32,000 bases of DNA from an uncultured Oscillospiraceae bacterium (GCA_949878425.1 CATLAL010000001.1:168706-200705); one strand, 5' to 3'; counted from the first letter of the stretch, positions 4,333-30,481 are shown. Numbers and translations: made by a program. Notes: generated by a model from the letters alone, not told the origin.

Positions 4333-4401
4333 AGATGCAAGCTCAAAAAGCCGTATTCCGTTATCTTGTAATTCCTAACTTGGCAGAATACTAGAGCTTG
4401 C

Positions 4402-4560
4402 TTGAAAAATGTTAACACGCCCAAACAGCAGGTCTTTTTCCGCCGCGCATTGCCAAGCTTCCCTGCAATACATCCAGTATTCCCGCGTCAAATTGGCTTC
4501 GCCTGGCGGCGAAAAAATCCCTCGCTCTTGGGCATATTCCCATTGTTCAAACAGCGCCTA
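4402..4560 (+). repeat. Copy A (degenerate) of a ~155-160-nt dispersed repeat, lying inside the rsmA 5' leader
   Basis: Hand alignment to 20679-20833 gives about 20 mismatches plus two small indels, roughly 85% identity. There is no consistent reading frame between the copies. Confidence 0.8.
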
Positions 4561-7852: not shown

Positions 7853-7864
7853 GTTTATTGCTTT

Positions 7865-8080
7865 AGCAAAAGGACATCTGGCGAAGCCAGATGTCCACGA
7901 ACCGCCCGCTAAGCGGGTGGGATTAAAGCTTAAGCAAAGAAACACCCAATCTGGTAAAACGGTGAGCGTTCAAGACACCAAAAAACAGAAGGGATGTTTC
8001 TTATGGCAAATAGTTTAGCACATACAAAGAGGGTATGCAAGTACCATATCGTATTCACACCAATATTGTGCATATATTGA
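7865..8080 (+). mobile_element. IS200/IS605-family remnant: left-end hairpins plus only the first ~20 codons of tnpA
   Basis: ATG at 8003 encodes MANSLAHTKRVCKYHIVFTP, which matches the conserved N-terminus of IS200-type Y1 transposases (SLAHT+W/R+CKYHIVF+PKYRR). The similarity ends at about 8062 and a stop follows at 8078-8080. Upstream hairpins are GGACATCTGGC-GAA-GCCAGATGTCC (7871-7897) and CCCGC-TAA-GCGGG. Confidence 0.6.
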
Positions 8081-17588: not shown

Positions 17589-18098
17589 CGCAGAGCATGT
17601 GCCTATCTGCACGACAGCACCGGGGGTATCCCCCCGGACCCCCGGGGAGTTCCGCGCTCCGGCGCGGGGCCGCTTTTTGACGCCAAAGAGCGGCCGGAAA
17701 AACCGCTGGACCTACGGTCCAGACCCCCTTGCTTTACGGGAGTCCAGAATAAGTCCTAAACCTCTCAGCTCCTGAGTCAAAAGCGCACTTCTGCGGGTTT
17801 GGCGTTCGTCCCGCTCCGCATGCCGGCCCTTTGAGGGGGGGGGATCTACCGTCGGCCTATGACCGGGACGGTTCTTTAAAATAGGGGCGTTCCAATCGCC
17901 GGACCTGTAGGGGCGAGCATCGCTCGCCTTTACACGGATTCAGCAAACCGGAAGAGCTGCGGATGATTGAACCCGGCCTCCGTCGGGTGCGCGTCCAAAA
18001 TGGTTCTATCCCTTCGTGGGCCGGCAGGCGGAGCCGGCCCACGGGGGGCAGAGCCCCCGGTGCTAACGACAAGATAGGCATTCGCGGAACCCGAGGTT

Positions 18099-18144
18099 AC
18101 AAAGTTTCGCCGGGAAAAGTTTTTCTTAAAAAAGGATGTATGCC
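18099..18144 (+). repeat. Partial copy of the two-hairpin intergenic module, ending in TGTATGCC 22 nt before the comM ATG
   Basis: ACAAAGTT...TTTTTCTTAAAAAAGGATGTATGCC aligns with the right half of the modules at 24848-24897 and 26497-26545. Confidence 0.45.
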
Positions 18145-18166: not shown

Positions 18167-19684
18167 ATGGTTGTCACAGTTCAGTCCCTGGGGCTCCAGG
18201 GGATCACGGGCTACGAGGTAGCGGTGGAGTGCGCCCTCTCCGGCGGCCTCCCGGCCTTTGACGTGGTGGGGCTTCCCGACGCGGCGGTGAAGGAGGCCAG
18301 GGAGCGGGTCCGGGCGGCGGTCAGGAGCTGCGGCGCCAAGCTTCCCGTCTCCCGGATTACCGTGAATCTGGCCCCCGCGGCACTGCGCAAGGAGGGCACG
18401 GTCTACGACCTGCCCATTCTGCTGGGCATTCTGGCGGCCCAGGGGGACGTGGAGCCCCCGAGCCAGGACGCCGCCTTTCTGGGGGAGCTGTCCCTGACCG
18501 GCGCGCTGCGGCCCATCACCGGCGTGCTCCCCATGGCCATGGCCGCCGCCCGCTGCGGGCTCCGGTCCCTATACGTCCCGGCGGAGAACGCCGCCGAGGC
18601 CGCCCTGGCCGGAGACCTCGCGGTCTACCCGGTAGAAACTGTGGAGGCCCTGCTGGCCCATCTGCGGGGAGAGCGGGCCATTCCGGCGGCCCGGGAGTGG
18701 GCCCCGGAGGCCGGGGCGGAGGCCGGACCGGACTTCGCCGAGGTGATGGGCCAGGAGAACGTGAAGCGGGCCATGGAGGTGGCCGCCGCCGGAGGGCACA
18801 ACATCCTGCTCATCGGGTCGCCGGGGGCGGGAAAGTCCATGCTGGCCCGGCGGCTGCCCTCCATCCTGCCGGATATGACCCGCCGGGAGGCCCTGGAGGC
18901 CACGGAGGTCTGGTCCGTGGCGGGCATGACGGACAGCCGGCACCCCCTGCTCCGCCGCCGCCCCTTCCGCAGTCCCCACCACACCGTCTCAGCGGCGGCT
19001 CTGGCCGGCGGCGGAACCGTGCCCAGGCCCGGGGAGATCTCCCTGGCCCACAACGGGGTGCTCTTTCTGGACGAGCTGCCGGAGTTTGGCAGAGACGCCC
19101 TGGAGGCCCTGCGCCAGCCCCTGGAGGACGGGGAGGTGACCATCACCCGAACTGCCGGCAGCGTGCGCCTGCCCAGCCGGTTCATGCTGGTGTGCGCCAT
19201 GAACCCCTGCCGGTGCGGCTGGCGGGGCCACCCCTCGGGCCGCTGCTCCTGCACGGACGCTATGGTGGAGCGGTATGTCAGCCGCATCTCCGGACCCCTG
19301 CTGGACCGAATGGACCTCCATGTGCAGGTGCCCTCGGTGGAGTTCGAGGCCATGCGCCGGCGGGAGAAGCCGGAGCCCTCCTCCGCCGTAAAGGCCCGGG
19401 TGGACGCGGCCCGCTCCCTCCAGGGGGAGCGTTTCGCCGGCACGGAGGTCTCCTGCAACGCCCACATGACCCCCGCCATGGTGGGCCGCTTCTGCGGTCT
19501 GGACGGCGCGGGGGAAAAGCTCCTCCAGGCCGCCTACGCCCGCATGGGCCTCACCGCCCGCAGCCACGACCGCATTCTGCGGGTGGCCCGGACCATCGCC
19601 GACCTGGAGGGGGAGGCGCAGATCGCCGCGGCCCACCTGGCGGAGGCCATCCAGTACCGGAACACGGATATTCTGCGGAGCTAG
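18167..19684 (+). CDS. comM: YifB/ComM family Mg-chelatase-like AAA+ ATPase
   Basis: There is an N-terminal Lon-protease-like domain. It contains Walker A LLIGSPGAGKS, plus GVLFLDELPEF and RILRVARTIADLEG. The SD GGAGGA lies upstream of the ATG at 18167. Confidence 0.9.
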   Translation: MVVTVQSLGLQGITGYEVAVECALSGGLPAFDVVGLPDAAVKEARERVRAAVRSCGAKLPVSRITVNLAPAALRKEGTVYDLPILLGILAAQGDVEPPSQDAAFLGELSLTGALRPITGVLPMAMAAARCGLRSLYVPAENAAEAALAGDLAVYPVETVEALLAHLRGERAIPAAREWAPEAGAEAGPDFAEVMGQENVKRAMEVAAAGGHNILLIGSPGAGKSMLARRLPSILPDMTRREALEATEVWSVAGMTDSRHPLLRRRPFRSPHHTVSAAALAGGGTVPRPGEISLAHNGVLFLDELPEFGRDALEALRQPLEDGEVTITRTAGSVRLPSRFMLVCAMNPCRCGWRGHPSGRCSCTDAMVERYVSRISGPLLDRMDLHVQVPSVEFEAMRRREKPEPSSAVKARVDAARSLQGERFAGTEVSCNAHMTPAMVGRFCGLDGAGEKLLQAAYARMGLTARSHDRILRVARTIADLEGEAQIAAAHLAEAIQYRNTDILRS

Positions 19685-19688
19685 GCCC

Positions 19689-20048
19689 TCAGCGGTCATC
19701 CAGGAGAGGCCCGAAGTGCCGGGCAAAGAGCTCCTCCGCGTACGCCTTCAGCTCCGCCTCAAAGCCCTCGTAGGCCGCCAGCACCCGCCGGCCCTCCGCC
19801 GTCAGGGACGCGCCTCCTCCGTTTCGGCCGCCGGCGGCGGCGTCCACCAGCTTCATCCCCAGGCCCCGCTCCGCCTCCCGCAGGATGGTCCAGGCCTTGG
19901 AGTAGGCCATCTCCATGTCCTGAGCCGCCGCCCGGAGGGAGTGGAGCCGGTCTATTCTCCGCAAAAGCATGGCCACCCCGGGGCCGAAGCACTTTTTGTC
20001 CGTGTACAGCCGGGCTGTGATGCCGGGGTGCAGCCGGATCTCTCCCAT
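19689..20048 (-). CDS. ModE-N/LysR-type winged-helix transcriptional regulator (119 aa, DNA-binding domain only)
   Basis: Contains GPGVAMLLRRIDRLHSLRAAAQDMEMAYSKAWTILREAERGLGMKLV...GGASLTAEGRRVL. The SD GGAGGAGG lies upstream of the ATG at 20048. Confidence 0.75.
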   Translation of the reverse strand: MGEIRLHPGITARLYTDKKCFGPGVAMLLRRIDRLHSLRAAAQDMEMAYSKAWTILREAERGLGMKLVDAAAGGRNGGGASLTAEGRRVLAAYEGFEAELKAYAEELFARHFGPLLDDR

Positions 20049-20217
20049 CGCCCTGTCCTCCTCCGATTTTTGCCCAGTATACCACGGCAACCGCCGCCGG
20101 ACAACGGGTTTTGCCTCAAATTTCTGTTTACTGTCCGGATTTTCGGACACGTCGCGGTGTATCCTATGTACAGAAGCAAAGAAAAACCGTCGGCTGTACA
20201 GAAAGGAGCGCGGAGCG

Positions 20218-20319
20218 ATGAAGGGGTATTACAACGGCAGCGGCTACATGGGATACGTGGACGGGCGGTGGATGCTGTTCGCCAGCGAGCAGGACTACCG
20301 GGAGTATCTGGAGGAGTAA
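20218..20319 (+). CDS. Possible 33-aa small protein MKGYYNGSGYMGYVDGRWMLFASEQDYREYLEE
   Basis: The SD AAGGAG lies 9 nt upstream of the ATG. It is divergent from the ModE-like regulator. From memory it resembles short conserved proteins of gut Clostridia; this is unverified. Confidence 0.5.
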   Translation: MKGYYNGSGYMGYVDGRWMLFASEQDYREYLEE

Positions 20320-20418
20320 TACTTTTTCTTGAAAGCGTCGCTTACGGCGCCCCTTGGGCGCTGGCGAGCCTAAACCGCCTTGCAGGCGGTCCACGGAAAA
20401 AGTATCAAAAAGAACTTT
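20319..20418 (-). repeat. Copy of the AT-hairpin module (minus orientation) with a ~60-nt GC-rich insertion in its loop
   Basis: ATACTTTTTCTTGAAAG[...]GGAAAAAGTATCAAAAAGAACTTT aligns with 29441-29480 and 26296-26398. Confidence 0.5.
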
Positions 20419-20540
20419 AATGCGAGCCTAAACCCATTGCTATTCCAAGATTTCTGCCCGATGACGTTTGGATGCTTTTAACTGGAGAATAGGGCATGTT
20501 TGATATTTTTCAAACATGCCCTAGTATAGGCATACCGTAA

Positions 20541-20572
20541 AAGCCAGAGGACCATGGGCCCTCCGGCTTTTT
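20541..20572. terminator. Terminator-like hairpin with flanking A- and T-runs
   Basis: AAGCCAGAGG-loop-CCTCCGGCTT (one mismatch) followed by TTT. Confidence 0.45.
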
Positions 20573-20678
20573 ATAGTGAATAAAGTTGAAAAGCAATAAA
20601 GTTTAGGTCCGCCCTTTTCAAAGGGCGGCGGGGTCTGGGGCAGAGCCCCAGCGGGTTTGGGCAGAGCCCAATTCTTGT

Positions 20679-20833
20679 TTGAAAAATGTCAGCATACCCA
20701 AACGGCGGGTCTGTTCCCGCCATGCATTGCCAATTTTCCTTGCAATACATCCAGTATTCCGGCGTCAAACTGGCTTCGTCTGGCGAAAAAATTCCTCGCC
20801 ATTGGCATATTCCCATTTTTCAAACAGCGCCTA
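20679..20833 (+). repeat. Copy B (better preserved) of the ~155-160-nt dispersed repeat with 13-bp terminal inverted repeats
   Basis: TGTTTGAAAAATG (20676-20688) is the perfect reverse complement of CATTTTTCAAACA (20814-26). Internal hairpins are GGCGGG-TCTGTT-CCCGCC and CCAGT-N13-ACTGG. Confidence 0.8.
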
Positions 20834-20871
20834 GAGACTGTTAAAAAAGTGGTGCGGAGCCTTTTTTGCCG

Positions 20872-22443
20872 CTACATCAGGGGGGCCACGGCCTTCAGGA
20901 GGGCGCCCATCAGCTTCAGGCTCCGCTTCTCATGGCGGACCGTCTCCGGCGTCACGGCGCGGCACTTGGCCAGCGTGGCCTGGAAGTCCGCCTCGATCTC
21001 CGGCACACAGGCGGTCCCGTAGAGGTAGGTGGCGCACTCGAAGTGGTGGTACAGGCTGCGGTAGTCCAGGTTGATGGTGCCCACCACCGCCTCCCGGCCG
21101 TCGCTGACAAACACCTTGGCGTGGACGAAGCCGGGAGTATACTCGTAGAGCTTCACGCCGGAGGCCAGCAGGGAGGCGTAGTGGGTCTTAGCCAGGGCGT
21201 AGGGGACCTTCTTGTCCGGGATGCCCGGCAGGATCAGGCACACCTCCACCCCCCGCTCCGCCGCGAACTTCAGGGCGGTCTCCATCTCCCCGTCCAGAAT
21301 CAGGTAGGGGGACATGATGTGCACATAGCGCTGGGCCCGGTTCAGAATGTCCATGTACACCCGCTCCCCCACCTTGTCCCCGTCCAGGGGGCAGTCGCCG
21401 TAGGGGAGCACCCAGCCCCGCTCCTCCTCTTGGGTGGGAACAGGGCCGGCCAGGAAGCGGTCAAACTCCGGCTCCCTGACGTCGATGGACCACATCTGCA
21501 AAAATAGCAGGGTAAAGCTTTTCGCCGCCTCCCCCTTGACCATGACGGCGGTGTCCTTCCAGTGGCCGTGCTTTTGGATGTGGTTGATGTACTCGTCCGC
21601 CAGGTTCACGCCGCCGTTGAAGGCGGTGTGGCCGTCGATCACTAAAATTTTCCGGTGGTCCCGGTAGTTGTAGTGGGTGGAGACCAGGGGCGCCACCGGG
21701 GCGAACATCTTGCACTGGATGCCAAGGGCCCGCAGCCGCTTGGGGTAGTCGTGGGGCAGGGTGGAAAATTCGCAGGTGCCGTCATACAGCACCCGCACGT
21801 CCACCCCCGCCGCCGCCTTGCGCTCCAGAATGTCCAGCACCTTCCCCCACATGAGCCCCTCATCTATGATGAAGTACTCCAGGAAGATGAAGCGCTCCGC
21901 CCGCTCCAGCTGGCGGAGCATCTCCGCCCACTTGTCCTCCCCCAGGGGGAAGAAGGTGACGGCGGTACGGTCAAAGACCGGGTAGCACCCGCTGCGCCGG
22001 ATGTAGCGGGCCAGGGCCGCGGCTCCCGGATTCTCCGCCGCCAGGGCCTCCAGGACCTCTGGGGATTGGGGGATGGCGCCTCGGGTCTGCTCCGTCAGCT
22101 GGCTTAGCCGGGCCTTCACCGCCCGGTGGCCGATGTCGCTCTGGGTGTACCAGAACAGCAGCGCGCCGAATACCGGCATCAGCATGATCACGATGAGCCA
22201 GGTGATCTTCGCCGTGGGGTCGATGGCGCTGTTGAGAAGCCAGAGCACCATGCAGGCGGTGAACAGGGCCGTTCCTCCCAGGATGTAGGGCAGAATGCCC
22301 GCGAACCATTGGAACACGCTAAACAGGGCGAAAACCTGGAGCGCCAGCAGGACGAGAATCAGGCCCATCCGGCTGAAGATGGCGTGGATAAGACCCTTTC
22401 GCCCCCTCCTCAGCAGGGACAGACCGTTGCTGTCGCGCTTCAT
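20872..22443 (-). CDS. cls: Cardiolipin synthase
   Basis: There are N-terminal TM helices and two PLD HKD motifs (HRKILVIDG..., HAKVFVSDG...). The start lies 1 nt after the recD2 stop, with GGAGGAGGAG upstream. Confidence 0.9.
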   Translation of the reverse strand: MKRDSNGLSLLRRGRKGLIHAIFSRMGLILVLLALQVFALFSVFQWFAGILPYILGGTALFTACMVLWLLNSAIDPTAKITWLIVIMLMPVFGALLFWYTQSDIGHRAVKARLSQLTEQTRGAIPQSPEVLEALAAENPGAAALARYIRRSGCYPVFDRTAVTFFPLGEDKWAEMLRQLERAERFIFLEYFIIDEGLMWGKVLDILERKAAAGVDVRVLYDGTCEFSTLPHDYPKRLRALGIQCKMFAPVAPLVSTHYNYRDHRKILVIDGHTAFNGGVNLADEYINHIQKHGHWKDTAVMVKGEAAKSFTLLFLQMWSIDVREPEFDRFLAGPVPTQEEERGWVLPYGDCPLDGDKVGERVYMDILNRAQRYVHIMSPYLILDGEMETALKFAAERGVEVCLILPGIPDKKVPYALAKTHYASLLASGVKLYEYTPGFVHAKVFVSDGREAVVGTINLDYRSLYHHFECATYLYGTACVPEIEADFQATLAKCRAVTPETVRHEKRSLKLMGALLKAVAPLM

Positions 22444-22444
22444 C

Positions 22445-24688
22445 TTACGTCTCCTCCTCCCTTTCTTTTGGGGCGGGCCCGTTCTTCAGCCGCCAGCGCA
22501 GGCCGCTGTAGCGCCGCTGCTGGCGGTCGTTGGCCGCCATGCGGCCCAGCGCGGCGTCGTCCCCCACCACCACCAGCAGCTCCCTGGCCCGGGTGAGGCC
22601 GGTGTACAGCACCCCCCGCACCATCAGGGCCGGGGCGGCGGGCAGGGCCACCAGCACCACCGCCCGGTACTCGCTGCCCTGGCTCTTATGTACCGTCACC
22701 GCGTAGGCCAGCTCCAGCTCGGAGAGCATGTCCGCCGTGTAGGTGGCGGTCCTGTCGTCAAAGCGGATGGTCAGCAGCTCGCCGCCGGGGTCCATGTCCT
22801 CCACCTGGCCCACATCGCCGTTGAAGATGCCGGAGCCGGTGACGCCGTCGTCCCGGACCCAGAGCACGTCGTAGTTGTTGCGCACCTGCATCACCCGGTC
22901 CCCGGTCCGAAACACGATCTCCCCCCAGGCCTTCTGCCGCTTCTCCGGGGCAGGGGGATTCAGCGCCGCCTGAAGGGCCCGGTTCAGCGCCCCGGTGCCC
23001 CACTCCCCCTTCCGGGTGGGGCAGAGGACCTGGATCTGGCTGGCGGGGACGCCCATGCTCTGGGGCAGGCGCTTCCCGCACAGCTCCACCACCAGCTCCA
23101 TAGCCGCCAGGGGGTCCCGGCGGCGCATGAAGAAGAAGTCGCTGTCCGCGCTGTTGCGCAGCTCCGGCAGGCCCCCCCGGTTCACCGCGTGGGCGGCCCG
23201 GATGATGGCGGAGGCCTGGGCCTGGCGGAAGATCTCCGTGAGGGCCACCGTCTCCACCCGGCCGCTGCGGATGAGATCGCCGAACACGTTCCCCGGCCCC
23301 ACGGAGGGCAGCTGGTCCGGGTCCCCCACCATGATGAGGCGGCAGTCGTCCCGCAGAGCCGCCAGCAGGGCGCTCATGAGGGGCAGGTCCACCATGCTCA
23401 TCTCGTCCACAATCACCGCCTCCGCCTTCAGGGGCTCCTTCTCGTTCTTCTGGAAGGCCACCTCCCCGGTCTCCTCCTTCCAGATCATGCCCAGAGCCCG
23501 GTGGACGGTCTGGGCCTCCCGGGAGCAGAGCTCCCCCAGCCGCTTGGCCGCCCGGCCCGTGGGGGCCATGAGCATGGTCCGGCAGCCCAGGGCGTCCAGC
23601 ACGGCCACGATGCCCCGCACGGAGGTGGTCTTTCCGGTGCCGGGGCCGCCGGTGAGCAGCACAACCCCCTGCCGCGCCGCCAGCTCCACCGCCCGCCGCT
23701 GGGCCGGGGCGTAGGTGAGGCCCTGGGCCTCCTCGATCTGGGAGAGAATCCGGTCCGCCTGGTTGGACACATAGTCCGACCGGTCCGCCTGGCATTGGAG
23801 CATCCGCTCCAGCTTCTCCGCCACGCGGACCTCCGCCTCAAAGAGCCGGCGGAGGTAGCAGGCGTCCACCTTCGCCACCGACTGGCGGAGGACGCTGCCC
23901 CGGGCGATAAGGCCGTCCAGAGCCGCCTCCACCATGTCCGGCGGGCAGTCGATGAGCTGCGCCGCCGCGGCAGCCAGCTTGTCCCGGGGCAAAAAGACGT
24001 GGCCGTTGTTCAGGTTGTAGCTCAGCTCAAAGAGGACAGCCGCCTCTATCCGCCGGCGGCTGTCCCCCGCCATGCCCATGGAGAGAGCGATCTCGTCCAT
24101 AACGGAGAAGTCCACGCCGTAGACCTCCTCCACCAGCAGGTAGGGGTTGTCCTTCACCGCCTCCAGGGCCCCGGCGCCGTAGCGCCGGTAGAGCCGCAGA
24201 GCCAGGCTCAGAGGCAGGTCGTTGCGGGAGAGGAACTCCAAAAGCCGCCGCATGCCGGTCTGGTAGCGGTAGCTCTCCCCGATCTCCCGGGCCTTCCGGG
24301 GCGTAATGCCCCGGATCTTGGCCAGCAGCTCCGGCTCCTCCTCCAGCACCCGCAGGGTGTTGACGCCGAAGCGCTGGACCAGCCGCTCCGCTGTGGCGGG
24401 GCCCACCCCCTTGATGATGCCGGAGGAGAGATAGTCCAGGATCTCGTCCTCCGTGGTTGGCATGTGCCGCTCCACCTGGCTGGCCTGGACCTGCTCTCCG
24501 TGGACCGGATGGCTCACCCACTGGCCGGTGACGATGAGGTTCTCCCCCGGCGCCGCGCAGGGGATGGTCCCCACCACCGTCACAGCCTCCCCGTCGGAGG
24601 TCACCAGACGCAGCACCGTGTAGCCGTTCTCCTCGTTCTGGAAAATTACGTGCTGTACCGTCCCGTCAACGCTGCACCGCCCGTTCAT
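22445..24688 (-). CDS. recD2: RecD2-type SF1 ATP-dependent DNA helicase (RecD/TraA family)
   Basis: The N-terminal OB/HhH region has NGYTVLRL and GIIKGVGPATAERLV. It contains Walker A LTGGPGTGKTT, plus DEMSMVD, GDPDQLPSVGPG and AVTVHKSQGSE. The SD GGAGG lies 7 nt upstream of the ATG at 24688. Confidence 0.9.
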   Translation of the reverse strand: MNGRCSVDGTVQHVIFQNEENGYTVLRLVTSDGEAVTVVGTIPCAAPGENLIVTGQWVSHPVHGEQVQASQVERHMPTTEDEILDYLSSGIIKGVGPATAERLVQRFGVNTLRVLEEEPELLAKIRGITPRKAREIGESYRYQTGMRRLLEFLSRNDLPLSLALRLYRRYGAGALEAVKDNPYLLVEEVYGVDFSVMDEIALSMGMAGDSRRRIEAAVLFELSYNLNNGHVFLPRDKLAAAAAQLIDCPPDMVEAALDGLIARGSVLRQSVAKVDACYLRRLFEAEVRVAEKLERMLQCQADRSDYVSNQADRILSQIEEAQGLTYAPAQRRAVELAARQGVVLLTGGPGTGKTTSVRGIVAVLDALGCRTMLMAPTGRAAKRLGELCSREAQTVHRALGMIWKEETGEVAFQKNEKEPLKAEAVIVDEMSMVDLPLMSALLAALRDDCRLIMVGDPDQLPSVGPGNVFGDLIRSGRVETVALTEIFRQAQASAIIRAAHAVNRGGLPELRNSADSDFFFMRRRDPLAAMELVVELCGKRLPQSMGVPASQIQVLCPTRKGEWGTGALNRALQAALNPPAPEKRQKAWGEIVFRTGDRVMQVRNNYDVLWVRDDGVTGSGIFNGDVGQVEDMDPGGELLTIRFDDRTATYTADMLSELELAYAVTVHKSQGSEYRAVVLVALPAAPALMVRGVLYTGLTRARELLVVVGDDAALGRMAANDRQQRRYSGLRWRLKNGPAPKEREEET

Positions 24689-24706
24689 GGGGCCACCTCC
24701 TCTTTT

Positions 24707-24897
24707 GGGCATACATTCTTTCCTTTGTAAACAAGGAAAAAGGGCAAAAAGAAACGCCTTTTCCGCGAAACGATCCTTTCGCTCTGCCTTTTTATCGTGA
24801 GAAGTCTGCGCTCCTTTTCTCATCCATCAGCAAAGCGGCAGCTTTGCGGACAAAGTTCTTTTTGATTCTTTTTCTTTCAAGAAAAAGAATGTGTGCC
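24707..24897. repeat. Inverted doublet of a ~70-nt two-hairpin module (REPIN/MITE-like) filling the intergenic region
   Basis: The right copy at 24830-24897 reads GCAAAGC-GGCA-GCTTTGC / ACAAAGTTCTTTTTG / ATTCTTTTTC-TTTCAA-GAAAAAGAAT / GTGTGCC. The left copy at 24707-24782 is the degenerate reverse complement, GGGCATACATTCTTTCC...GGAAAAAG..CAAAAAGAAAC..GCGAAA-CGATCC-TTTCGC. Confidence 0.7.
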
Positions 24898-25227
24898 TGA
24901 AAAGTAGTCCGCGATCTCATCCTTTTGGCACAGGGACACCCAGCGGTCCTCCTTGACCAGGAGCTTTGCGAGCTTTTTGCCCTCCTCGCTGAGGCCGCAG
25001 TCCACCAGAAGAATAAGGCCGAAGAGGCCCTGCTCATAGCGCAGCCGCTCCAAAGCGTGGACCTGCTGCTCCAGTGCATCCCCGTCTCCCTGGGCGGGAA
25101 TGAGGGCTACCACCCCCTGCCGCTGCTCCGGCTTTGCGTACAGCACCGCCTTCACCGCCGCCCACATGAGGGAGGCCAGACCAATGGCGGCCAGCAGAGC
25201 CACCAGTCCATCCTGCCATAGCTGCAT
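24877..25227 (-). CDS. Hypothetical membrane-anchored protein (116 aa)
   Basis: The SD GGAGG lies 6 nt upstream of the ATG at 25227. There is an N-terminal TM segment (GLVALLAAIGLASLMWAAV). The last ~7 codons are encoded by the repeat module. No family recognised. Confidence 0.55.
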   Translation of the reverse strand: MQLWQDGLVALLAAIGLASLMWAAVKAVLYAKPEQRQGVVALIPAQGDGDALEQQVHALERLRYEQGLFGLILLVDCGLSEEGKKLAKLLVKEDRWVSLCQKDEIADYFSGTHSFS

Positions 25228-25313
25228 AAGTTCCTCCAATCCGCCGCGATAGCGCGGCTTTTGCGTTCCTTATGTCAGCTTATGCGGCGTATGGACGGTT
25301 TGACAGGGGAAAT

Positions 25314-25760
25314 TCAGACGGCGGAGCGCACCATTTCAAGCTCGGCCAGATTGCCCGAAAGCCGCTTCTCTTCCCCGGTAAAGACGTACCCGCACCGCCG
25401 GTAGAGCGTCTGAGCGGCAAGATTATTGCTCAGCACCCAGAGCTGAGGCGTTCCGGTGCAGAGCCCCTCTGCAAAATGCAGCAGCTTTGTCCCGTATCCC
25501 CTGCGTTGCTCACCCGGCAGGACATAGAGGTTTCCGATCAGCCGTCCGCATACGGATACAACCCCTTTCGGATCGCCCAGCAAGAGCAGGTAGAAGCGCC
25601 GCCCCCGCTCCATCTCCCCGCGGATGTACACCATCTGTCGGGCCGTTGTATGGGCCGCCACGAATTCCGCAGAGCAGAACCCCTTGTGGGACTCCCTCCA
25701 GGATAGGGCGTGGACCCGGGCCGCGGCCTCCAGGTTTTCTTCCGTAACAAGCGCAAACAT
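25314..25760 (-). CDS. GNAT family N-acetyltransferase
   Basis: Contains the acetyl-CoA binding motif LYVLPGEQRRGYGTKLL. The SD AAGGGGGG lies upstream. Confidence 0.85.
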   Translation of the reverse strand: MFALVTEENLEAAARVHALSWRESHKGFCSAEFVAAHTTARQMVYIRGEMERGRRFYLLLLGDPKGVVSVCGRLIGNLYVLPGEQRRGYGTKLLHFAEGLCTGTPQLWVLSNNLAAQTLYRRCGYVFTGEEKRLSGNLAELEMVRSAV

Positions 25761-25775
25761 ACCCGTACGCCCCCC

Positions 25776-26261
25776 TTAGAACAGGCTGGCCACCCCGAAG
25801 GTGAGGATACTGATGGCCACCCCGGCGATGAGCACCCCCGCTATAATGGACGGCAGCGCCTTGCGCAGAGGCATGTCCAGAAACGCCGCAGCCAGGGAGC
25901 CTGTCCAGGCGCCGGTCCCAGGCAGGGGAATGGCCACGAATAGCAGCAGGCCTAAATATTTGTATTTCGTCACCTTCTGGCCCTTGAGGTGGGCCTTTCG
26001 CTCCAGCTTGTCCACCAGGTGGTTGAGCCGGGGGACCTTCCGGCGGATCCAGAGAAAGATCCGCCGGATGTAGACGATAATGAAGGGCACCGGGAGAATG
26101 TTGCCAATCACCGCCGCCAGAAACGCCGCCCATACCGGCAGCCCCCTGGCTACGCCAAAGGGTATCCCCCCCCGCAGCTCCACTACCGGAATCATGGACA
26201 CCAGCGCGGTGAAGCAGAACTCCCCCGCCGCCGTGCCCGTAAGCCACTGCATTAAATCCAT
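25776..26261 (-). CDS. COG2426-type putative small multidrug export membrane protein
   Basis: Contains ALVSMIPVVELRGGIPFG...ILPVPFI...IPLPGTGAWTGSLAA, characteristic of this family. The SD AGAGG lies upstream of the ATG at 26261. Confidence 0.8.
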   Translation of the reverse strand: MDLMQWLTGTAAGEFCFTALVSMIPVVELRGGIPFGVARGLPVWAAFLAAVIGNILPVPFIIVYIRRIFLWIRRKVPRLNHLVDKLERKAHLKGQKVTKYKYLGLLLFVAIPLPGTGAWTGSLAAAFLDMPLRKALPSIIAGVLIAGVAISILTFGVASLF

Positions 26262-26287
26262 GAAAAACCTCTTTTCTGCGCGTATGC

Positions 26288-26545
26288 GGGCATACATACT
26301 TTTTCTTTGTGAACAAACCGCTCGCCGCCCTTTGGGCGGCCTGGACCGCTAGTGCCCGCTTCGCGGTCACTGCAAGGAAAAAGTATCAAAAAGAAAAACC
26401 TTTTGCGGAAAAACTGCGTTTTGCCTTTTGGGTATATTGAAAATATTGAAATTGGCTCGTTACAAAATACAAGAGCAAAGCGATAGCTTTGCGATCAAAG
26501 TTCTTTTTTGATTCTTTTTTCTTTCAAGAAAAAAGAATGGATGCC
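26288..26545. repeat. Second inverted doublet of the two-hairpin module, with a nested GC-rich insertion in the left copy
   Basis: The right copy at 26475-26545 is about 90% identical by eye to 24830-24897. The left copy at 26288-26400 reads GGGCATACATACTTTTTC...[GC-rich hairpins]...GGAAAAAGTATCAAAAAGAAAAAC. Confidence 0.7.
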
Positions 26546-26570
26546 CTAACGCTCTAAATGCCCTAAATGC

Positions 26571-29399
26571 CTACCGGGCCAGAACCTTTTTGAGATATTT
26601 TCCCGTATAGCTGGCCTGGCAGGCGGCGACCTCCTCGGGGGTACCGGTACAGACGACGGTACCGCCGCCGTCGCCGCCCTCGGGGCCAAGGTCGACGATA
26701 TGGTCCGCGCACTTGATGACGTCCAGGTTGTGCTCGATCACCACCACGGTATTGCCGGCGTCCACAAGCCGCTGGAGGACCTCCAGCAGCTTGCCCACGT
26801 CGTCGGTATGGAGGCCGGTAGTGGGCTCGTCCAGGATATAGATGGTGCTGCCGGTACTGCGGCGGCTAAGCTCGGTGGCCAGCTTCACCCGCTGGGCCTC
26901 GCCGCCGGAGAGGGTGGTGGAGGCCTGGCCCACCTTGATATAGCCCAGTCCCACGTCGCACAGGGTCTCCATGCGGCTGCCGATCTTGGGCAGGGCCTTG
27001 AAGAACTCCTTGGCCTCCTCGGCGGTCATCTCCAGCACGTCGTAGATATTCTTCCCCTTATAGCGGACCTCCAGGGTCTCCCGGTTGTACCGCTTGCCCT
27101 TGCAGACCTCGCAGGGGACATAGATGTCCGGCAGGAAGTGCATCTCGATCTTCAGCAGGCCGTCCCCGGAGCAGGCCTCGCACCGGCCGCCCCGGACGTT
27201 GAAGCTGAACCGGCCGGAGTTGTAGCCCCTGGCCTTGGCCTCGGGCGTGGAGGCGAAGAGGTCCCGAATGTCGCTGAACACCCCGGTGTAGGTGGCGGGG
27301 TTGGACCGGGGGGTGCGGCCAATAGGGCTCTGGTCGATGCCCACCACCTTGTCCAAATACTCCTCCCCCTCCATGGCCCGGTGCTTCCCCGGGCGGCACT
27401 TCATCCGGTTCAGGTCCGCCCCCAGGCGCTTGAAGAGGATCTCGTTGACCAGGGAGCTCTTCCCGGACCCGGACACGCCGGTGACGCAGGTGAAGGTCCC
27501 CAGGGGGATGGAGACGTCGATATTTTTCAGGTTGTTCTCCGCCGCGCCCCGGATCACCAGGGCCTTTCCGCTGCCCTGCCGGCGCTCCCTGGGCACGGCG
27601 ATGGACCGCCGGCCGCTGAGGTACTGGCCCGTGAGGGAGGCGGGGTTGGCGGCCACCTCCTCCGGCGTACCGGCGGCGATGATCTGCCCGCCGTGGACGC
27701 CCGCGCCGGGGCCCACGTCGATGATATAGTCCGCAGAGCGCATGGTGTCCTCGTCGTGCTCCACCACGATGAGGGTGTTGCCCAGGTTCCGCAGCTGCCG
27801 CAGGGTCTCCAGCAGCTTGTCGTTATCCCGCTGGTGGAGGCCGATGGAGGGCTCGTCCAGGATGTAGAGCACCCCCATGAGGCTGGAGCCGATCTGGGTG
27901 GCCAGCCTTATGCGCTGGCTCTCGCCGCCGGAGAGGGTGGCAGCGGAGCGGCTGAGGGTCAGATACTCCAATCCCACGCTCCGCAAAAAGCCCAGCCGGG
28001 CCTTGATCTCCTTGAGGATCTGGTCCGCAATCATGGACTGGGTCCTGGTGAGGGTCAGCCCCTCCACGAATTCCAGGGCCTGGTTGACGGGCTTGGTGGT
28101 GAAGTCGTAGATGCTGCTGCCCCCCACGGTCACCGCCAGGCTCTCCATCTTCAGCCGCCTGCCCTTGCACACCGGGCAGGGGCACTCGCTCATGATCTCC
28201 TCCAGGTCCCGGCGGGAGGCGTCGGACTGGGTCTCGCTGTAGCGCCGCTGGAGGTTGTTGCAGATGCCCTCAAAGGGCTGCCGGAGCACGCCCTTGCCCC
28301 GGGGCTGGTCGTAGTGGAGCTCCAGCTCCTCCCCCTTGGTGCCGTAGAGGATGATCTCCCGCACCGCCGGCGTCAGCTCCCGCCAGGGGGTGGTCAGCTT
28401 GAAGCGGTACTTCTTGGCCAGGGCGTCGAAGTACATGCGGCTGATGCCGTCCCCCCGGATGTTCTGCCAGCCGCTGGCCTGGATGGCCCCGTCCAAAATG
28501 GACTTCTCCTGGTCCGGCACAATGAGGTCCGGGTCCGCCTTCAGCTGGCTGCCCAGGCCCGTGCAGGCGGGGCAGGCGCCGTAGGGGTTGTTGAAGGAGA
28601 ACATGCGGGGGGCCAGCTCCTCAATGCTGACGCCGCAGTCCTCGCAGGCGTAGTTCTGGGAGAAGAGCAGGTCCCGCTCCTCCTGGAGGACGTTGGCGAT
28701 CACCAGGCCCCCGGAGAGGCCCGAGGCGGTCTCCACGCTGTCGGTCATCCGCTGGCGCACGTCGGGCCGGACCACCAGCCGGTCCACCACGATCTCAATG
28801 TTGTGCTTCTTGTTCTTCTCCAGCTTGATCTCCTCGGTCAGCTCGTAGAGGGAGCCGTCCACCCGGGCCCGGACGTAGCCGGACCGGCGGGCGTCCTCAA
28901 AGACCTTCTGGTACTCCCCCTTCCGGGCGCGGACCACCGGGGCGAGAATCTGCACCCGGGTCCCCTCCGGCAGCTCCAGAATCTGGTCAATGATCTGGTC
29001 GATGGTCTGCTGGCGGATCTCCTTGCCGCAGACCGGGCAGTGGGGCGTGCCCACCCGGGCCCAGAGCAGGCGGAGGTAGTCGTAGATCTCCGTCACCGTG
29101 CCCACGGTGGACCGGGGGTTCTTGCTGGTGGTCTTCTGGTCAATGGAGATGGCCGGGGAGAGGCCGTCGATGTAGTCCACGTCCGGCTTCTCCATCTGGC
29201 CCAGAAACATCCGGGCGTAGGAGGAGAGGCTCTCCACGTACCGCCGCTGGCCCTCGGCGTAGATGGTGTCAAAGGCCAGAGAGCTCTTCCCCGACCCGGA
29301 GAGGCCTGTCACCACCACCAGCTTGTCCCGGGGGATCTCCACGTCCACGTTCTTCAGATTGTTTTCTCTCGCGCCCTTGATGTAGATTTTGTCCTGCAT
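26571..29399 (-). CDS. uvrA: Excinuclease ABC subunit A
   Basis: Contains [48 protein letters not shown], two ABC modules and zinc-finger CxxC pairs. The start is set at the ATG at 29399 (SD GAGG 8 nt upstream). Confidence 0.95.
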
Positions 29400-29433
29400 A
29401 TCCATTTCCTCTGCTGTTTTTTCGCGTACATTT

Positions 29434-29505
29434 GGCATACAGTCTTTTTTCTTGAAAGAAAAAAGACTCAAAAAAAGAACTATTTGCCGCAAACCTGCGG
29501 TTTGC
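29434..29505 (-). repeat. Singleton copy of the two-hairpin module between the M28 peptidase gene and uvrA
   Basis: Read on the minus strand: GCAAACC-GCA-GGTTTGC / GGCAAATAGTTCTTTTTTTG / AGTCTTTTTTC-TTTCAA-GAAAAAAGACT / GTATGCC. It carries compensatory changes relative to the other copies. Confidence 0.65.
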
Positions 29506-29542
29506 TCCCGGATTTTTGGTGGGGATGATATGGCTATGGCTG

Positions 29543-30481
29543 TTACAGGGATTCCGCCAGCCGCACCGCCCCGTCCCGGAGCAGCGCGATGTTCTCCTCC
29601 TGGAAAACGGTGTCCTTTTTGGTATGGATCCGGTCCATATAGTAGCCGATGATCCGCCTTTCCTTCAGGGCGCAGACGCCCACGCCCCGCTTGAAGGACG
29701 CGTTGTCCGAGGGGTAGAAGCCAAAGCCCCGGACCACCTCCGTCCGCTTCTCCCCCCGGCCCCGGAAGGCCCTCTCAATCTTCGCCAGGGTCCCGCCGTC
29801 CTTTTTCAGCCGTGCGCCGGGGAAAAATTGGATGAAATCCCCGTCGGACACGCAGTCGAAGTTGATGTTCAGGGTCTCCCGTTTCGCCCTTTTGTGGGCC
29901 CTGGTGAAGGCGGCGGAGCCGAACATGCCCTTCTCCTCGTTGTCGAAGAACACGAGGCAGACCTTCTCCCGGTCCTCCTCCGGCAGGGCCAGGGCGGTCT
30001 CCAGGAGGGTAATGACGCCGCTGGTGTTGTCGTTGGCGGTGTGCCTATTGGCCGGGCCGTCGAGGATCCACCAGACGAAGAAGGCGCACAGGGCGATGGA
30101 AGTGACGGGCATCAGCAGCAGGAGCTTTGGTGCGTGCAGCTCCACGATCACGGCCAGGAGGACGCCCTCCAGGATTGCCACCGCCAGAAACAGCGGGATA
30201 ATCAGCAGCAGCTGGTAGCAGACATAGAAAAGCAGGTTCCTGGGGGTAATAAAATTGGGGACCGGCAGCGCGGCGCAGGTGTCGTAGTGGGCGGAGAAAA
30301 TCACCTTGGCCGCCTCCGGGTCCCCTGCCACTACGTTTTTCGCGGCGAAGCCCTTTTCTACCTTCGGCGCGTAGCCCGCCCGCTCCAGCTCCCCGCACAG
30401 CCAGGCGCGGAAGGCTTCCTTCTGTCTCCTGGATTTGCGGACCTGGAAGTCCGAGAGAACGGTATGGGATTGGGGCGTCAT
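29543..30481 (-). CDS. M28-family zinc metallopeptidase with an inserted hydrophobic (membrane) segment
   Basis: Candidate M28 ligand motifs occur in order: [20 protein letters not shown], and DRIHT. About 85 residues of largely hydrophobic sequence sit between the first two. The start overlaps the XRE gene stop (ATGA). Confidence 0.7.

Follow-up and report, generated by a model that had tools for sequence, protein, structure and literature searches.

A stretch of 32,000 nucleotides from an uncultured Oscillospiraceae bacterium (GCA_949878425.1, CATLAL010000001.1:168706-200705; hereafter the window, with positions counted from its first letter) contains seven copies of a small two-hairpin module in the gaps between its genes. 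An initial annotation made from the sequence alone had likened these copies to repetitive extragenic palindromic (REP) sequences, to bacterial interspersed mosaic elements (BIMEs), to inverted REP doublets (REPINs) and to miniature inverted-repeat transposable elements (MITEs). We propose, with a probability of about 0.7, that the modules are insertion-derived structured repeats of gut Oscillospiraceae that insert as single modules, are retained as hairpins in read-through transcripts and depend on a mobilising enzyme supplied in trans. The unit is a single module of ~50-75 nt, and the family is an undescribed one of a known kind, small structured repeats, confined to one clade of Oscillospiraceae (Oscillibacter/Pelethomonas-like gut bacteria). 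All copies that had been listed before are present, displaced by a few bases at most. We refer to them as A, B, C and E, which are clear, and D, F and G, which are degenerate or partial (Table 1).

Structure and distribution of the module

The module is built around a 47-nt core, AAAGTTCTTTTTGATNCTTTTTCTTTCAAGAAAAAGNATGTATGCC, that is nearly invariant across 14 species-representative genomes of Oscillospiraceae. An optional GC mini-hairpin (GCRAARC, a loop of the G-N-A type, GYTTYGC) is followed by a pyrimidine tail, AAAG-TTC(T)n-GA, and then by a perfect A/T hairpin of 11-14 bp with equal run length n in its two arms; the end of the module adjoins a GTATGCC-like sequence, which we call the head. 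One position of the closing pair, N, is always altered on both sides (ATTC/GAAT, ATAC/GTAT, AGTC/GACT, ATCC/GGAT), and the search pattern did not force pairing at this position. In 53 copies found at E ≤ 2e-5 (41 distinct; 58 copies were analysed in all), 99.6% of the cells of the AT hairpin pair, and 5 of the 11 pairs are altered on both sides, in 33 cells. The covariation score of 0.245 compares with 0.084 in shuffles, none of 500 of which reached the observed value, and it does not exceed 0.037 when the partners are slid against each other. Of 56 copies, 34 have a perfect GC hairpin (6 bp or more) at a distance of 1-6 nt on the upstream side of the core; by chance, 4.6% of random windows and 1.3% of shuffles contain one. 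The hairpin occurs in at least nine compensated stem types, including GCAAAAC, GCGAAAC, GCAAAGC, GAAAGGC, GCAAGGC, GCAAACC, GCCAAAC and GGAAAAC, mostly with G-N-A or G-N-N-A loops. Compensatory base changes had been claimed for both hairpins, and they are borne out here together with the sequences that had been quoted for the GC stem. Imperfect pairs (AT hairpin, two G.T versus two A.C; GC hairpin, three G.T versus no A.C) are too few to tell which strand folds.

A scan of one genome per species, covering 185,579 species with the pattern GTTCTTTTT-N10-40-AAAAAGWMTGKRTGCC, returned 34 loci. Of these, 29 come from 14 Oscillospiraceae genomes (Oscillibacter, Pelethomonas and other Oscillospiraceae metagenome-assembled genomes, MAGs) with up to seven per genome; the remaining five are chance matches in unrelated phyla and contain no palindrome. 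A covariance model of 24 copies, 23 from other genomes plus copy A, whose own score is partly circular for this reason, found 41 full-length copies in these first 29 loci (~216 kb). In the window itself the spacer CAAAGTTCTTTTTG has 7 sites at up to 3 mismatches, compared with 1.1 expected. Viral contigs and phages gave no matches, and plasmids gave one partial, unrelated match. No Rfam family reached its gathering threshold on the module, where the best sub-threshold matches had E > 0.5, and a literature search returned nothing on Oscillibacter or Oscillospiraceae repeats.

Insertion and persistence at orthologous sites

For the comparison of orthologous sites we used loci from related genomes, numbered with a prefix L. 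Those around the gene for a small multidrug export protein (Sm) comprised ten conspecific contigs, L035/L036 from a relative with 94% protein identity, L037-L041 from relatives with 86-88%, and 80 metagenome loci with 69-87%. Only 20-50 nt separate uvrA, Sm, the gene of a small protein and recD2 in most relatives, and these short spacers point to an ancestral operon; in some relatives the string begins with uvrB, a gene like those of REP-associated tyrosine transposases (RAYTs), ybaK and uvrA. A doublet of modules between uvrA and Sm (200-310 nt) is found only in the clade of the window species, L035 and L082, while the same spacer measures 31 nt in the nearest outgroup, L081, and ~31 nt in most relatives. 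The spacer upstream of recD2 measures 20-40 nt in most relatives. It contains a module in the window clade, in L057 but not in its sisters L078 and L091, and in L100; this patchy presence implies at least three gains. In L057, ~117 nt including the module replace 24 nt inside the 3' end of the open reading frame (ORF) of the small protein, whose former last codons can still be recognised further downstream. Neither L035 nor L082 has copy A. In the window it is aimed into the 3' end of the gene of a 116-aa protein, whose last codons and TGA stop (24877-24879) lie inside the module: the protein ends ...SGTHSFS* by reading into copy A, which supplies the stop codon, and that of L035 ends ...SGAH*. 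In the L053 group a doublet stands elsewhere, immediately behind the Sm stop. Presence/absence differences at orthologous sites, which the annotation had suggested looking for across strains, are found between related species, and some copies cut into ORF ends. Patchy presence and ORF-end truncation together identify the modules as insertion-derived DNA, as REP, BIME and MITE elements are.

We saw no target-site duplication at doublets or singles (seven doublets were inspected). The empty site of L035 has GGCGCACAT and then TAA, where the window has GGCACACAT and then TCTTTTT; the empty site of L078 has AAATATCTG and L057 has AAAAGTATG. Head-like sequence in empty sites suggests either a target preference or joining within microhomology. 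The GTRTGCC end that had been counted among the parts of the module does adjoin the modules, but it is not always within the inserted DNA.

Once inserted, the modules can persist. The cores of the orthologous uvrA-Sm doublet score 45-76 bits in the window, L035 and L082, among which the Sm gene has 80-89% nucleotide identity (63-73% at four-fold degenerate sites), compared with only 28-61% in the spacer at the centre of the doublet. Changes in situ have affected the closing pair, which is A-T, C-G or T-A depending on the species, the GC stems, which differ with compensation (e.g. GCAAAGC versus GAAAGGC), and n, for which the values 6, 4 and 5 are accompanied by parallel shifts of the tail run. 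The maintenance of the fold calls for selection or for conversion from other copies. Identical syntenic copies in all relatives had been named as a sign against mobility; one doublet is indeed syntenic in three species, but there are clear gains elsewhere.

Doublets and the search for a mobilising enzyme

Back-to-back inverted pairs fill the intergenic regions 24690-24876 (D/A) and 26262-26570 (E/B), as had been described. Folded as single strands, both are more stable than shuffles (z = -3.7 and -4.8), and the predicted minimum-energy structure of D/A is the long foldback proposed in the initial annotation. Doublets of this layout (outward-pointing heads, a GC hairpin for each module and 30-50 variable nt in between) recur in L003, L020, L022, L025, L033, L035, L053/L059 and L082. 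Most copies are singles, however, and singles score highest.

These observations bear on a strict REPIN/RAYT system as defined earlier (PMC3337134, PMC3116915, PMC5581495), in which the doublet would be the replicating unit, a single-copy RAYT gene flanked by modules would mobilise it and singles would be decay products. The recurrence of doublets in at least eight other loci, their capacity to fold into long hairpins and the vertical inheritance of one of them in three species agree with such a system, and RAYT Group 1 has been reported in Clostridia (PMC5581495). Moreover, related Oscillospiraceae encode RAYT-like proteins of ~160 aa that match NCBIfam REP_Tyr_transpos (NF047646) with E 3e-16 and 59.5 bits, below the curated cutoff of 80; they have 1090 homologues, each on few contigs. 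We nevertheless consider a strict REPIN/RAYT system unlikely. Singles are not only the majority but also the best conserved, and D occurs alone in L035 and L082, where A is absent, so that the D/A doublet was built by adding a second single, A, beside the older D. What inserts is the single module and not the doublet. In addition, the RAYT-like genes sit inside uvrB-ybaK-uvrA or ybeY-era operons (ybeY-RAYT-era-recO) with spacers of 8-30 nt; modules neither flank them nor occur in any of six 20-kb loci (~120 kb, 3 RAYT-like clusters). With its short spacers and no repeats at its flanks, the conserved RAYT-like gene of these housekeeping operons looks domesticated. At the syntenic uvrB-uvrA position the window species has genes for a helix-turn-helix (HTH) protein and an M28 peptidase and no RAYT-like gene.

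A tblastn search of 897 kb of related DNA with IS200 and IS608 TnpA and Escherichia coli RayT sequences, the last of which detected the RAYT-like proteins, did not find a cognate full-length IS200/IS605 element with the hairpins of the module. The only trace of a Y1 transposase in the window is the truncated left end of an IS200 (7994-8066), whose codons are preceded by two hairpins, GGACATCTGGCGAAGCCAGATGTCC and CCGCCCGCTAAGCGGGTGG, unrelated to the modules. Single modules also have no terminal inverted repeats, which together with the missing target-site duplications sets them apart from MITEs mobilised by DDE transposases. The REPIN/BIME/MITE-like label thus stands as an analogy for extragenic, structured and insertion-derived DNA and fails in the strict sense of a DDE MITE, whereas strict REPIN membership finds no support in the loci sampled. 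Its mechanistic part, doublets moved by RAYT enzymes, is not supported in view of the prevalence of singles, the stepwise assembly of D/A, the lack of target-site duplications and RAYT-like genes without modules.

Coupled run lengths and a possible triplex

Three runs of the module, the T-runs of tail and left arm and the A-run of the right arm, share one length (n = 4, 5 or 6) in 48 of the 50 copies parsed. That the T-run and A-run lengthen together had been noted before; this covariation is real, but it involves three segments rather than two, as the T-run of the spacer covaries too. In asymmetric variants the tail mirrors the left arm and is not a direct repeat of it. A pyrimidine-motif triplex requires just such a sequence, a mirror pyrimidine repeat together with a purine arm. 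The module might accordingly be imagined as a structure-specific mobile element in which mirrored tail, left arm and right arm form a Y*R-Y triple helix, either as H-DNA in the duplex or as U.A-U triples in a transcript or single strand. The enzyme that inserts the module next to GGCAYACAT-like sites would then recognise this triplex-plus-hairpin fold and not a sequence; alternatively or additionally, the fold would protect the 3' ends of operon mRNAs. We hold this to be a long shot. The parallel change of n (6, 4 and 5) at one orthologous site in three species is compatible with it, whereas the 5-nt linker would need to be unpaired, in conflict with the well-supported covarying lower stem. 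If true, a selected triplex motif would for the first time be found at the heart of a dispersed bacterial repeat. The run-length covariation at three places of the module and the head that is partly present in empty sites are two oddities of the family.

Placement relative to genes

The midpoints of 57 of the 58 copies fall outside predicted genes in DNA of which ~77% is coding, in line with the extragenic location ascribed to them earlier. In the 48 copies classified first, the head precedes a start codon by 16-37 nt (most of ~19 copies) or is 0-16 nt, often 0-2 nt, away from a convergent stop (most of ~28). Co-directional genes enclose the module in one orientation 17 times and in the other 18 times, and the neighbours are ordinary housekeeping genes. 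Placement in both orientations argues against an element with an orientation-dependent function such as a promoter or a terminator. Next to the AT hairpin comes GTATGCC; the GC hairpin continues into GCAAAAAG on one strand and into mixed sequence on the other. Neither hairpin has a U-tract behind it in either orientation, which is compatible with transcriptional read-through.

One could still regard the module as a mobile promoter cassette that provides the gene it points at with a sigma-A promoter (TTGATN as -35, AAGNAT as -10, start in GTATGCC). Approximately 19 copies end at the distance from a start codon given above, and in the n = 5 variant, the most frequent one, the hexamers are exactly 17 apart. 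A conserved uvrA promoter/operator, CTTGACATTAAAAATNNGTTTCNNTATCCT, with TTGACA-N17-TATCCT is common to most relatives (L037, L053, L054, L097 and others); in the window species (29400-29545) it is gone and copy C is in its place. Promoter reuse has been documented (PMC3575422). However, the spacing is 19 at n = 6, 19-21 at n = 4 and ~58 nt longer in copies E and F, the hexamers match at only 8 of 12 positions, and a sigma-70-like promoter scan of 24600-29600 found no site. Half of the copies are aimed at the 3' end of a gene that converges on them or run antisense to co-directional neighbours, and the compensatory changes keep the hairpin, not the hexamer. On account of variable spacing, orientation and the empty scan we rejected a sigma-A promoter, and a promoter cassette appears very unlikely. 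Binding motifs of sigma-E/K/H, LexA/Cheo, CodY, Rex, ComK and SinR were compared by eye; none fits all copies or explains the compensatory changes.

A host-evolved RNA element that arose in place and is not mobile (an intrinsic terminator, an attenuator or a protein-binding site) has equally poor prospects. It would explain why the core is conserved across genera and at an orthologous site and why copies are placed tightly at gene boundaries, and a loose terminator scan picks up the GC hairpin of copy B when the minus strand is read. Yet terminator-like sites are not enriched in that scan (6 found versus 4.4 expected), the missing U-tracts exclude an intrinsic terminator in either orientation, and both orientations are equally frequent. 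Near-identical cores of ~47 nt next to unrelated genes, patchy presence among close relatives and ORF-end truncation all require insertion. Finally, chance resemblance of low-complexity A/T-rich intergenic DNA, which might be suspected because the arms are T- and A-runs and GTATGCC alone is not significant in the window (8 sites versus 3.0 expected), is refuted by E values down to 1e-14 with a model derived almost entirely from other genomes, by the core in 14 species and by the 500 shuffles.

Copies in the window and neighbouring features

The window has ~63% G+C, and a T-box and two tRNAs are its only Rfam matches. Genes, which were called with a simple gene finder based on G+C content at third codon positions (GC3) that reproduces the local gene starts, are all on the minus strand from 20.9 kb onward and encode cardiolipin synthase, RecD2 helicase, the 116-aa protein, a GNAT acetyltransferase, Sm, UvrA, the M28 peptidase, the HTH protein and UvrB. 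The modules fill the A/T-rich gaps between the genes of the window. Copy D is as degenerate as had been stated, and the copy that had been delimited to 26288-26400 (copy E) is present, with its length explained by a separate GC-rich insert of two hairpins in the loop. The GC-rich inserts of ~58 nt in copies E and F represent either a nested mini-element or a long-loop subfamily.

Table 1. Modules, module parts and associated features. Positions refer to the window unless a locus number is given; scores are from the covariance model.
Feature	Position	Strand	Bits	E value	Remarks
Copy A, whole	24830-24897	+			Canonical long form
Copy A, core	24851-24897	+	76.3	7e-15	Score partly circular
Copy A, GC hairpin	24830-24847	+			GCAAAGC-GGCA-GCTTTGC
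Copy A, tail	24851-24864	+
Copy A, AT hairpin	24865-24890	+
Copy A, head	24891-24897	+			GTGTGCC
Copy B, whole	26475-26545	+			n = 6 variant; head GGATGCC faces uvrA stop (26571); orthologues in L035 and L082
Copy B, core	26496-26545	+	59.9	2.5e-11
Copy B, GC hairpin	26475-26492	+
Copy C, whole	29434-29505	-			n = 6; closing pair AGTC/GACT; head 35 nt from uvrA start
Copy C, core	29434-29484	-	56.2	1.7e-10
Copy C, head	29434-29440	-
Copy C, AT hairpin	29441-29468	-
Copy C, tail	29469-29484	-
Copy C, GC hairpin	29489-29505	-			GCAAACC-GCA-GGTTTGC
Copy E, whole	26288-26425	-			Head 27 nt from Sm start codon (26261); orthologue in L035 without loop insert
Copy E, scored span	26289-26404	-	44.4	5.5e-7	Includes ~58-nt insert in hairpin loop
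Copy E, head	26289-26295	-
Copy E, AT arms	26296-26314 and 26373-26386	-
Copy E, nested insert	26315-26372	-			~58 nt, GC-rich, two hairpins; in loop of AT hairpin
Copy E, tail	26387-26400	-
Copy E, GC hairpin	26407-26425	-			Imperfect
Copy D, whole	24707-24782	-			Imperfect AT hairpin, tail present; head 20 nt away from start codon of recD2 (24688); single orthologues precede recD2 in L035 and L082
Copy D, scored span	24708-24762	-	19.6	0.015	Degenerate
Copy D, head	24708-24714	-
Copy D, GC hairpin	24765-24782	-
Central spacer of D/A doublet	24783-24829				Variable; between back-to-back copies
Copy F, whole	20319-20419	-			Without head and GC hairpin; right arm overlaps TAA stop (20317-20319) of a + strand gene
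Copy F, tail part scored	20385-20419	-	18.6	0.026	Partial
Copy F, right arm	20319-20335	-
Copy F, loop insert	20336-20394	-			GC-rich; related to copy E insert
Copy F, left arm	20395-20405	-
Copy F, tail	20406-20419	-
Copy G, whole	18099-18144	+			Degenerate; tail and head recognisable, AT hairpin largely lost; head 23 nt upstream of comM-like start codon
Copy G, scored span	18115-18144	+	17.8	0.038	Weak
ComM-like gene, start codon	18167	+			Pfam
Truncated IS200-like element	7860-8066	+			~24 first codons of Y1 transposase (MANSLAHTKRVCKYHIVFTP...), then frame breaks
RAYT-like (HUH/Y1) gene	L120 486-986
RAYT-like (HUH/Y1) gene	L132-L136 10001-10528 (L136 6519-7046)
RAYT-like (HUH/Y1) gene	L137-L138 10001-10519

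Directly after the head of copy B, head-like TAAATGCC motifs are repeated (twice) at 26546-26570. Tandem head-like fragments, GAATGTATGCC followed by AATGTATGTATG, are also present in L002 (1055-1085) just downstream of the copy at 1008-1054. Such fragments may be footprints of repeated events or of slippage.

Other repeats were noted along the way. A non-coding direct repeat of 112 nt (85% identical, no Rfam match) occurs at 4397-4508 and 20674-20785 of the window, 16 kb apart. A second, G+C-rich repeat family with GGGGTCTGGGGCAGAGCCCC-like hairpins (window 17600-18090 and 20590-20670; L037 4042-4758; L120 251-404) fills large intergenic regions in several species, and in L120 it is found immediately before the RAYT-like gene, within a duplicated stretch of 68 nt from the uvrB 3' end. 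The cumulative GC skew peaks at ~18500-20900 of the window and genes converge at 20.3-20.9 kb, so the window may span the replication terminus; a hairpin TAGGGCATGTTTGA...TCAAACATGCCCTA is found at 20492-20524.

Discussion

Our preferred reading of the modules as insertion-derived repeats can be put as follows. Single modules have entered, in one orientation or the other, the short spacers of tightly packed and probably co-transcribed genes, and two that landed back to back make up a doublet. Insertion would proceed via a folded single strand that is recognised by a structure-specific enzyme supplied in trans, such as an HUH transposase of the IS200/IS605 or RAYT type or possibly a recombinase, with a preference for GGCAYACAT-like target sequences. 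An inserted module can persist across speciation while compensatory changes keep both hairpins, and retained copies would act as neutral-to-useful intercistronic hairpins in polycistronic mRNA, much as REP/BIME elements do in the operons of enterobacteria, and as neither promoters nor terminators. Several points weigh against this reading. No transposase gene flanked by modules was seen in the 897 kb of related DNA with these query sequences, and the ten conspecific contigs are identical over all three intergenic regions, i.e. there is no insertion polymorphism within the species. The target preference is drawn from only two or three comparisons of filled and empty sites, the gene finder is crude, and an RNA-level role of retained modules is purely inferred. 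A core that is near-identical across genera and long kept at one site would fit a host-selected function equally well.

Among known systems, the behaviour of the modules is closest, by analogy, to that of the REP/BIME elements of Enterobacteria. REPs are GC-rich imperfect palindromes of ~35 nt with a GTAG head. The modules resemble them as short extragenic palindromes with conserved single-stranded flanks that lie inside operons and after stop codons, form inverted pairs with variable linkers, have compensated stems and are compatible with read-through. They differ in that they join a mirrored pyrimidine tail and an additional GC mini-hairpin to their perfect A/T hairpin, in their Firmicute host and in showing no RAYT link in the loci sampled. 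Being multi-copy and extragenic with a compensated stem, the module is a REP/BIME-type palindrome in the broad sense (an overview of REP/BIME elements is given in PMC3337134). With REPIN-RAYT systems the modules share inverted doublets able to form long hairpins, vertical persistence, extragenic location and the occurrence of RAYT-like genes in Oscillospiraceae. Here, in contrast, single modules are what inserts, and RAYT-like genes are neither flanked by modules nor found together with them in the sampled loci.

As for the mechanism, an IS200/IS605-type insertion that is single-stranded, duplication-free and target-adjacent would, by analogy, fit best among those known. Miniature elements derived from IS200/IS605 (palindrome-associated transposable elements, PATEs) move by single-strand 'peel and paste' transposition into TTAC-type targets. 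The modules are similar in that the single unit has no terminal inverted repeats and no target-site duplication, that hairpins are located at both ends and that one end abuts a conserved short sequence. Yet the two hairpins of the module are unlike each other, no cognate TnpA with these ends was found in the DNA searched, and the putative target, at 7-9 nt, exceeds theirs and shows only loose conservation among diverged copies. Terminal inverted repeats and TA or TTTAT duplications are typical of Correia elements of Neisseria, RUP of Streptococcus pneumoniae and bcr1 of the Bacillus cereus group. Together with BOX and SPRITE, likewise of S. pneumoniae, they are small structured repeats close to genes and conserved in species within a genus, as the modules are, but the modules have neither terminal inverted repeats nor TA/TTTAT duplications and no sequence similarity to any of these elements. 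Integron attC sites likewise keep structure over sequence, have a variable loop (up to ~58 extra nt in the modules), follow ORFs directly and have a junction shared with the target. However, the modules have no extrahelical bases, no R''/R' core symmetry, no integrase and no cassette array, and they occur in both orientations among housekeeping genes.

In Proteobacteria, elements such as REP, BIME and Correia affect how operons are expressed, how stable mRNAs are and how genomes rearrange, and to our knowledge very little comparable has been described for the abundant, mostly uncultured Oscillospiraceae of the gut. The module family is a ready marker for an Oscillospiraceae clade. It also offers a natural set of insertions inside DNA-repair operons (uvrA, recD2, comM), including copy C, which takes the place of the conserved uvrA promoter. 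The modules create false ORF extensions and may break MAG assemblies. Finally, target-like junctions, the lack of a duplication and three-way run-length covariation pose a puzzle that could point to an unrecognised form of structure-specific transposition or recombination.

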